The position numbers were made by a program, and so were the translations under genes. From the sequence record OP745617: DNA of 64,000 nt. The stretch is one strand, 5' to 3'. Within the stretch, counting starts at the first letter, position 1. Each line of letters begins with the position of its first letter. Shown here piece after piece: positions 53,434 to 53,880 of this stretch. Source of the DNA: Escherichia phage F13. The notes beneath the pieces are model-generated. The model had not been told where the DNA came from. It saw only the letters and a program-made list of their open reading frames with translations, and searched no databases.

Positions 53434-53880
53434 TTAACGGTAGTTAACTAGTTGCTGATCACCAGAGAAGGTGCAATGATAAACGAATTGTGCGTTATAA
53501 AGCAACTGAAAACTTTTCTTTGGTTCATTATTAGAACTCATTGATGTAAAGATTTCTGCACCAGAACGGTTTTCACCAATCAGGTTGATAAAGCCGCCAG
53601 TTGAACGAGGCTGAACGAAAGTGAAACGTTGCATCCACGGAGTGCGGTTGGCACCTTTCCCTGTGAATCCTTGAATCTGAATATTCAGGCCTTCTTGCTC
53701 GTTCACACCGATGTAAGTGGTAATTGTTGCGCCAGTCGTTGCTGCAGTCTTGCCGTCCATCGCTTCGCAATCGTAAACAGCGATTGAATCGGAAGTACGG
53801 ACAGCGGCTTCAGTCGCTTCCATATACATGGTTCCGAGAATAGCAGTTGCGGCAAGCGCGATTCCAGTGATTCGTTTCAT
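53434..53880 (-). CDS. secreted small protein (148 aa, signal peptide, two Cys)
   Basis: MKRITGIALAATAILGTMYMEA signal-like N-terminus; one Cys near each end of the mature chain. Confidence 0.5.
   Translation of the reverse strand: MKRITGIALAATAILGTMYMEATEAAVRTSDSIAVYDCEAMDGKTAATTGATITTYIGVNEQEGLNIQIQGFTGKGANRTPWMQRFTFVQPRSTGGFINLIGENRSGAEIFTSMSSNNEPKKSFQLLYNAQFVYHCTFSGDQQLVNYR

Follow-up and report, generated by a model that had tools for sequence, protein, structure and literature searches.

Virulent phages have few small exported proteins, but these have been informative: Spackle, Imm and RI of T4 and Llp of T5 each showed how the envelope of an infected cell is defended or timed. Other phage-encoded envelope proteins are morons, such as Lom and Bor of phage lambda, which have a promoter directly upstream of the gene and are expressed from the prophage. 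On the bacterial side, small periplasmic β-barrels such as PliC/MliC (PF09864), whose family motifs are SxSGAxY and YxxxTKG, are often stoichiometric inhibitors, acting on lysozymes, and the β-barrel domain of Cap15 (PDB 7N34), a cytoplasmic effector of the cyclic oligonucleotide-based antiphage signaling system (CBASS) and thus part of bacterial defense, binds cyclic nucleotides. T4 Spackle (gp61.3) is an early periplasmic inhibitor of T4's own tail lysozyme, gp5, and excludes superinfecting phage (PMC7677548). Here, we report a computational analysis of a gene in a 64,000-nt stretch of DNA from Escherichia phage F13 (sequence record OP745617; hereafter the window), which encodes a 148-aa protein that is very probably an exported, soluble periplasmic β-barrel. 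The gene and the parts of its product are as follows.

53434..53880, minus strand: coding sequence of the 148-aa secreted-protein precursor, with the stop codon at 53434-53436 (from the list of open reading frames, or ORFs, and the sequence)
53889..53892, minus strand: Shine-Dalgarno sequence GAGG, 8 nt before the ATG (from the sequence)
53806..53880, minus strand: predicted signal peptide, codons 1-25, MKRITGIALAATAILGTMYMEATEA (from its n/h/c layout and the -3/-1 rule, with probable cleavage after Ala25)
53437..53805, minus strand: mature chain of 123 aa, 13.6 kDa and pI 6.8, predicted to form an up-and-down β-barrel
53767..53769, minus strand: codon of Cys38, in the first β-strand, invariant in the family alignment and aligned in gp75 of Pantoea phage Kyle
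53473..53475, minus strand: codon of Cys136, in the last β-strand, invariant in the family

The window is a Wifcevirus genome, which places it among virulent myoviruses of E. coli and Shigella of 66-72 kb, with the Pseudomonas Pbunavirus phages as distant relatives (PMC11990801). The 148-aa ORF begins at the first start codon available after the upstream stop and is a real coding gene under purifying selection. Its product is 100% identical in Escherichia phages vB_Eco4M-7, WFC, SP13 and Bas99/Bas101 and 94.6-99% identical in the other Wifcevirus records, the gene being present in all 28 of the 28 records and annotated every time as "hypothetical." Across nine distinct Wifcevirus alleles (36 pairs, with a rate of synonymous substitution, dS, of up to 0.42), the summed nonsynonymous rate (dN) divided by the summed dS is 0.08, as compared with 0.04 for the neighboring phrog_4828 gene. 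A paper on synthetic vB_Eco4M-7 holds no information on gene essentiality.

Outside Wifcevirus, relatives are scarce. When 1.84 billion representative proteins were searched exhaustively with HMMER, P0002 (129 aa, E 3.6e-5) was the only relative outside the Wifcevirus cluster; P0003 (133 aa) and P0004 (126 aa) came from profile searches, and the HMMER pass together with three word-indexed searches of very large collections yielded P0001-P0004 only. No further lineage of the family appeared in scans of viral, metagenome and genome contigs, and no homologue was found in bacterial and archaeal genomes taken one per species (185,579 species). Likewise, Pfam gave no match for five family members even at E up to 10, PHROGs and NCBIfam gave none for the target and its relatives, PDB sequences searched by phmmer and by profile returned noise only, and a search of the literature on phage periplasmic eight-stranded barrels brought up nothing on the family. 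The three distant metagenomic relatives, P0002-P0004 (28-35% identity), lie on phage-like contigs with the same gene order, namely a 319-321-aa homologue of the Rossmann-motif protein encoded upstream in the window, the small protein and ThyX (with an extra 79-aa ORF between the last two in one of the three), followed by a HAD protein, an SDR, an exonuclease and Pol III alpha. The 148-aa protein belongs to a small, phage-restricted, uncharacterized family, a new sequence family among the exported accessory proteins of virulent phages.

This family probably extends to Pantoea phages, in which the same slot holds two exported proteins in Kyle and one in PA1. Kyle gp75 is a probable distant member: its hhalign alignment to the family spans 123 columns and keeps both cysteines in register (E 0.0011), and by hmmsearch it is the best non-member among 1857 ORFs (E 0.016). 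For Kyle gp74, hhalign covered just 13 columns, and membership is unproven. The annotated GTG start of gp74 (L013, 5966-6412) at position 5966 is probably wrong, since an internal ATG at 6035 follows GAAGGA and opens a clean signal peptide, MKRFIIAAAAIVAASTLCPVAVHA, followed by ESS, while the annotated 5' extension overlaps a promoter-like site, TTGACG-17-GATAAT. We also considered the "lysis-related protein" of Pantoea phage PA1 (PA1-LRP) as a relative and rejected it, as it is a different, helical protein of 8.5 kDa that adjoins the endolysin.

The preliminary description of this stretch had reported, at 53434-53880, a 148-aa product with a signal peptide and two cysteines, one near each end of the mature chain, and the family bears this out. 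The N terminus reads MKR, a 17-residue hydrophobic stretch and then ATEA before AV, so that positions -3 and -1 are occupied by Thr and Ala; it thus has the charged n-region, the h-region of about 7-17 residues and the small neutral residues at -3 and -1 of a Sec-type signal. The nine distinct Wifcevirus genomes have five synonymous and no nonsynonymous variable codons among codons 1-25, and this part of the gene is therefore translated and constrained. At the aligned site, all seven family proteins have T, V or A in position -3 and Ala in position -1, and the mature chain of each has exactly two cysteines. The signal sequences themselves fall into three mutually unrelated types; the aligned cleavage point is common to all. 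P0003 and P0004 are the most telling pair, with mature parts that are almost identical from GEYRGNRT on but signals that differ: MKRLTAILIAAAAVVGTSYVGNVGA in P0003 and the short, textbook MKRLILAVAMLSSFAATA in P0004, each followed by the same mature N terminus, GEYRG. Because these two proteins match in the mature part but not in the signal, the comparison fixes the cleavage point, which would lie after Ala25 in the window protein and release a 25-residue signal peptide. Positive charges precede the hydrophobic segment and acidic residues come after it, a layout that puts the C-terminal domain outside. Cys38 and Cys136 each lie 13 residues from an end of the 123-aa mature chain. Gln68, Gln70 and Glu103 are invariant as well.

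While AlphaFold2 run on the single sequence gave an unusable model, with a predicted local distance difference test (pLDDT) score of 34.6, a five-sequence alignment yielded a best model with a pLDDT of 72.4 and a predicted template modeling (TM) score of 0.65. In this model, residues 1-23 have a pLDDT below 50, and the mature chain folds into nine strands and one short helix, with the Wifcevirus-specific insertions (residues 41-48 and 74-81) falling between strands. The mature chain is therefore predicted, with moderate confidence, to be a small up-and-down β-barrel; as first and last strands adjoin in a closed barrel of this kind, a Cys38-Cys136 disulfide stapling it is plausible. Structure comparison gave scores of 7.1 for PhiA, 7.0 for a type VI secretion system immunity protein and 6-7 for avidins and lipocalin-like proteins. 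The eight-stranded outer membrane proteins NspA (8.7) and OmpA (7.8) superposed less well, with a root-mean-square deviation (RMSD) of 3.5-3.8 Å as against 2.3-2.9 Å for soluble barrels. Designed barrels and lipocalins head the Foldseek entries (TM 0.3-0.5), and the sole match in a viral structure library is the Mansfield orthologue (TM 0.77). The preliminary description had instead likened the size and architecture of the protein to OB-fold or lectin-like proteins such as toxin B-subunits and had proposed structure prediction with Foldseek as a check; the predicted model is a small barrel resembling soluble barrels, and no five-stranded OB barrel or AB5 B-subunit is found among its structure-comparison and Foldseek matches.

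The gene is likely to be transcribed together with its downstream neighbors. It lies, as previously stated, between genes for a ThyX-like protein and a putative flavin adenine dinucleotide (FAD) oxidoreductase. ThyX (PF02511, E 1.4e-30) starts 13 nt downstream of the stop codon, with AGGA within this gap, and no terminator was found in these 13 nt. The upstream gene, phrog_4828, encodes 331 aa with the motif GGGLAG at the N terminus; Pfam has no match for this protein, and the "FAD oxidoreductase" label derives solely from this motif. An exported protein amid cytoplasmic enzymes had been judged unexpected, and it is what the locus appears to hold, with genes for nucleotide and DNA metabolism all around and an export signal kept in divergent relatives. 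The surrounding genes agree with the annotated map of Bas99 (ManiWeber): primases, a Dda-like helicase, ThyX, a polynucleotide kinase/phosphatase (PNKP)-like HAD protein, an SDR reductase, a proofreading exonuclease and a Pol III alpha-type polymerase. On the upstream side, the 65-nt gap holds a predicted promoter whose -35 hexamer adjoins the stop codon of the upstream gene. This promoter, together with other occurrences of its motif and an inverted repeat that surrounds its -10 hexamer, is located as follows.

53917..53944, minus strand: σ70-like promoter TTGCTT-16 nt-TATACT, with the -35 at 53939-53944 and the -10 at 53917-53922 (predicted from sequence)
57651, 54994, 53944, 13619 and 11321, minus strand: -35 starts of the best motif matches, intergenic and just before genes with a Shine-Dalgarno sequence
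13659, 18396, 32761 and 58829, plus strand: -35 starts of the best motif matches, intergenic and just before genes with a Shine-Dalgarno sequence
51746, minus strand: weaker motif match, with two mismatches
53899..53939, strand not assigned: perfect 13-bp inverted repeat TTCTGCTTCAATG / CATTGAAGCAGAA, whose 15-nt loop contains the -10 hexamer (from a repeat search)

A generic promoter scan missed this site because TTGCTT fits TTGACA at just three of six positions. With one mismatch per hexamer allowed, the window contains 31 matches to the TTGCTT/TATACT motif, compared with a mean of 7.6 in shuffled sequences, and the form that recurs in the window's gaps is TTTGCTT-16/17 nt-TATA(C/A)T. TTGCTT-16-TATACT is also kept upstream of the distant homologues in loci L002, L007 and L012, related promoters precede the Kyle and PA1 genes, and the entire 65-nt gap is invariant in nine distinct genomes despite synonymous divergence of the coding sequences. 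With a predicted promoter directly upstream, only 13 nt to ThyX and no terminator, the 148-aa gene therefore heads, or lies within, a nucleotide-metabolism transcription unit.

These features bear on the suggestion of the preliminary description that the gene may be a moron, of which two elements stand: the promoter directly upstream, and a slot that is variable in distant relatives. Between phrog_4828 and ThyX, Xylella phage MATE2 has no gene, Serratia phage Hera an unrelated 86-aa ORF, and Pbunavirus E217 five unrelated ORFs of 68-76 aa without export signals. Other features speak against it. There is a promoter-like site of its own but no terminator; the gene is found in every Wifcevirus record, its GC content is ordinary (45.7% against 46.1% in the window), and the promoter type recurs in the window's gaps. 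Its position is kept in lineages that are just 28-35% identical, and presence of the family is patchy at the distant-genus level only. Hence, although the protein resembles Lom and Bor in being a phage-encoded envelope protein with a promoter directly upstream of its gene, it differs from them in belonging to a virulent phage, in cotranscription with ThyX without a terminator, in a position kept over deep divergence and in a product too small for an outer membrane barrel. As a promoter-like site is also present in the gap of MATE2, Hera and E217, where another gene or ThyX comes first, the most likely history is that an ancestor of the enterobacterial branch acquired the barrel gene behind an operon promoter that was already there, with vertical inheritance since. 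It is an old lineage-specific accessory gene, neither a recent nor a self-contained moron.

What might such a protein do? In the scenario that we favor, the product would be exported by Sec with removal of the 25-residue signal peptide, and the 13.6-kDa mature chain would fold in the periplasm into a small soluble up-and-down β-barrel, which the disulfide between first and last strand would probably close. Transcribed from the host-type σ70-like promoter with ThyX and other genes of nucleotide and DNA metabolism, it would therefore presumably be made during phage replication and not late with the lysis genes. It would then act stoichiometrically in the envelope as a binder or inhibitor, and might protect the wall or envelope of the infected cell, for instance if it blocked the tail enzyme with which a superinfecting phage degrades murein, or some other enzyme of the periplasm. 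An exported periplasmic barrel acting as an envelope binder or inhibitor is the best overall explanation, albeit a tentative one, favored because small periplasmic barrels such as PliC/MliC are often stoichiometric inhibitors and because Spackle provides a precedent. The specific envelope-protecting role, argued by analogy, is possible but less likely still. That the protein founds a new phage family of periplasmic barrel inhibitors, Spackle-like and directed against the SLT tail transglycosylase or a host periplasmic enzyme, and restricted to enterobacterial PB1-like myoviruses, is a doubtful extension of it.

The likeness to Spackle is one of setting. Both are small proteins of virulent coliphages that carry a signal peptide, have their genes among those not expressed late and act in the periplasm (as proposed for the 148-aa protein), and the Wifcevirus phage also carries a murein-degrading tail protein. 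The two share no sequence similarity, and Spackle is helical, whereas the 148-aa protein is predicted to be all-β. The target would differ as well, being perhaps an SLT transglycosylase rather than a T4-type lysozyme: the virion has a possible target in a tail protein of 726 aa (29175-31355) that contains an SLT transglycosylase domain (PF01464), and the phage also has a GH19 endolysin (39359-40003). The SLT-domain protein was detected by mass spectrometry (MS; PMC7048862). By contrast, the 148-aa protein is absent from the MS lists for vB_Eco4M-7 and ECML-117 particles and lysates, with gene numbering as we infer it, while several of its neighbors were detected (PMC7048862), and is for this reason probably not a part of the virion. 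As for PliC/MliC, the predicted model has the small soluble β-barrel fold of these inhibitors, but they are bacterial while the 148-aa protein is phage-encoded, and their motifs are not conserved, a partial "RSGAEI" being present in the Wifcevirus protein only and lost in its homologues.

Several points weigh against the binder or inhibitor reading. The barrel fold class is generic, as small barrels are also ligand binders, immunity proteins and adhesins, and a sequence relation to MliC/PliC, sought in Pfam to E 10 and among PDB sequences, was not found. The fold model was built on five sequences only, with pLDDT values of 52-64 for the other four models, and no Foldseek match in the PDB is better than E 0.018. 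The family is absent from the records examined of Pbunavirus E217 and Serratia phage Hera, which belong to the same wider phage group and whose tails probably also carry lytic enzymes; the 148-aa protein is therefore no universal partner of a tail lytic enzyme. With a dN/dS of 0.08, the gene also lacks the profile expected of one engaged in an arms race. Finally, the timing of expression is read from gene position only.

Among other explanations, the protein might regulate lysis timing as a periplasmic sensor or antiholin-like factor that, in the manner of T4 RI, binds the periplasmic part of a holin or spanin and sets or delays lysis. Like RI, it would be a non-late, exported small phage protein encoded in a replication-gene operon, and the Wifcevirus N-terminal segment is weakly hydrophobic, with Gly, Ala and Thr making up nine of the 17 residues of the hydrophobic stretch, a composition also seen in signal-anchor-release domains. 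Lysis by Wifcevirus phages is reported to be unusually fast (PMC11990801), and control of lysis is thus likely to matter to them. Nonetheless, this explanation is unlikely. The lysis genes are far off, with spanins at ~42.5-43.1 kb and the endolysin at 39.4-40.0 kb, and there is no likeness to RI in sequence or in predicted fold, RI being helical and not a barrel. Moreover, the weak N-terminal hydrophobicity is not conserved across the family: the signal peptides of P0004, Kyle gp75 and the PA1 protein are of the ordinary kind, being strongly hydrophobic and having A-x-A sites, and a release-type anchor is therefore no family trait.

No more probable is a binder of small molecules, that is, a lipocalin-, avidin- or Cap15-like periplasmic barrel that would sequester or carry a lipid, a lipopolysaccharide precursor, a siderophore or a signaling nucleotide. 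The barrel topology fits the lipocalin/calycin comparison, but the Foldseek matches are weak (E at least 0.018; TM 0.3-0.44 for lipocalins), neither lipocalin nor avidin families match in Pfam, a mature chain of 104-123 aa offers little room for a lipocalin cavity, and no ligand-related gene is nearby. The Cap15 barrel shares only 10% identity with the 148-aa protein, which, in contrast to that cytoplasmic effector, has the topology of an exported protein, with a positive N terminus, an A-x-A site and a cysteine pair.

It is less likely again that the N-terminal segment stays uncleaved as a type II signal anchor tethering the barrel to the outer face of the inner membrane. A 17-residue hydrophobic stretch is long for a signal peptide, and the two glutamates (E21 and E24) of the Wifcevirus c-region are unusual. 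On the other hand, the Kyte-Doolittle mean of this stretch is 1.82 over 15 residues but just 1.38 over 19, a profile more in keeping with a cleavable signal peptide than with a membrane anchor, small residues are found at -3 and -1 in all homologues, and the signal of P0004 has 18 residues and ends in A-T-A. Very improbable is a small outer membrane β-barrel of the OmpX/Ail/Lom type, for which one would expect membrane-spanning strands at least about 10 residues long, an aromatic residue at the C terminus and a match to a family profile. Mature chains of just 101-123 aa are far below known eight-stranded outer membrane proteins, most predicted strands have 6-10 residues and are too short for a membrane, strand 1 is charged on both faces, and the conserved cysteine pair on the first and last strands, neighbors in a closed barrel, is atypical, all of which argues for a soluble barrel. 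In addition, the C-terminal residue is not aromatic, the RMSD is worse than for soluble barrels, and Pfam gives no match to an outer membrane protein family. Scarcely credible, and largely refuted by the predicted fold and the history of the locus, is a recently acquired moron encoding an OB-fold or lectin-like binder of glycans or host cells, for which the signal peptide, the small size, the two cysteines and the variable slot had spoken.

Returning to the promoter region, the inverted repeat at 53899-53939 has an RNA folding energy of -19.3 kcal/mol (z -2.3), and an Rfam search of this hairpin gave no family match. We rejected it as an intrinsic terminator, as it has no T-run. Judging from its layout, transcripts from the embedded promoter would be without the left arm of the hairpin, whereas read-through transcripts would carry the whole of it, and dyad and embedded promoter together might serve as a switch, as an operator or for processing. 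Loci L002, L007 and L012 have dyads at the same promoter, placed differently. Within the window, a perfect long dyad with the -10 hexamer in its loop is seen at three motif sites, the other two being 51746 on the minus strand (TTCGTTTCGATGAG..CTCATCGAAACGAA) and 32761 on the plus strand (ATAGACTCCTTATA..TATAAGGAGTCTAT), where the right arm covers the Shine-Dalgarno sequence of the next gene. Elsewhere, at 4560 and 4863 on the plus strand, two identical promoter-like copies lie ~300 nt apart with their downstream 45 nt (TTACTT-16-TATAAT...GGTAGCGAATAGGTCGCTACC), an arrangement that suggests a directly repeated unit, either regulatory or a small gene.

The 148-aa gene is part of a conserved enzyme block (50351-54941, minus strand) that encodes the Rossmann-motif phrog_4828 protein, ThyX, the HAD/PNKP-like phosphatase, the SDR reductase and a glyoxalase-fold protein. 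Intrinsic-terminator-like hairpins with T-runs, both on the minus strand, bracket this block, one (55026-55046) before the phrog_4828 promoter and one (50315-50334) after the glyoxalase-fold gene, which suggests that the genes between 54941 and 50351 form a single transcription unit containing internal promoters. The Rossmann-motif protein, which matches no Pfam family and no PDB sequence, has homologues in 361 phage records from Pseudomonas, Escherichia, Serratia, Pantoea, Xanthomonas, Xylella and Rhizobium. The block is present in the loci of Kyle, Hera and MATE2 that we detailed, and ThyX is unannotated in E217. Because Wifcevirus phages are reported to be considerably resistant to restriction (PMC11990801), a nucleotide or DNA modification pathway is conceivable for these enzymes. 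Next to the block, at 55075-55920 (minus strand), lies the gene for a 281-aa low-complexity protein rich in Lys, Glu and Ala (phrog_4765), named "TolA protein" in some records. Both this protein and the glyoxalase-fold protein were detected by MS in vB_Eco4M-7 and ECML-117 preparations (PMC7048862), which is unexpected for products of the replication region.

A crude screen found about three candidate exported proteins in the window: the 148-aa protein, the o-spanin and a 180-aa protein (40256-40798, minus strand). The last, "hypothetical" in Bas99, is predicted to be exported, with the signal MKSKNLKIVLIIIMAMLTVLFFTKSAAA followed by ESMF, and has two cysteines and no Pfam match; its gene adjoins that of the GH19 endolysin at the end of a leftward operon.

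Most genes of Wifcevirus phages are without an assigned function, even though these phages are candidates for the biocontrol of E. coli O157 and now form part of the BASEL reference collection. The 148-aa gene is short and strongly conserved, and among the collections searched none contains a relative of its product whose function is known. If this protein does inhibit a murein hydrolase, it would represent a new inhibitor scaffold; otherwise, it would be one more conserved accessory gene of these phages.
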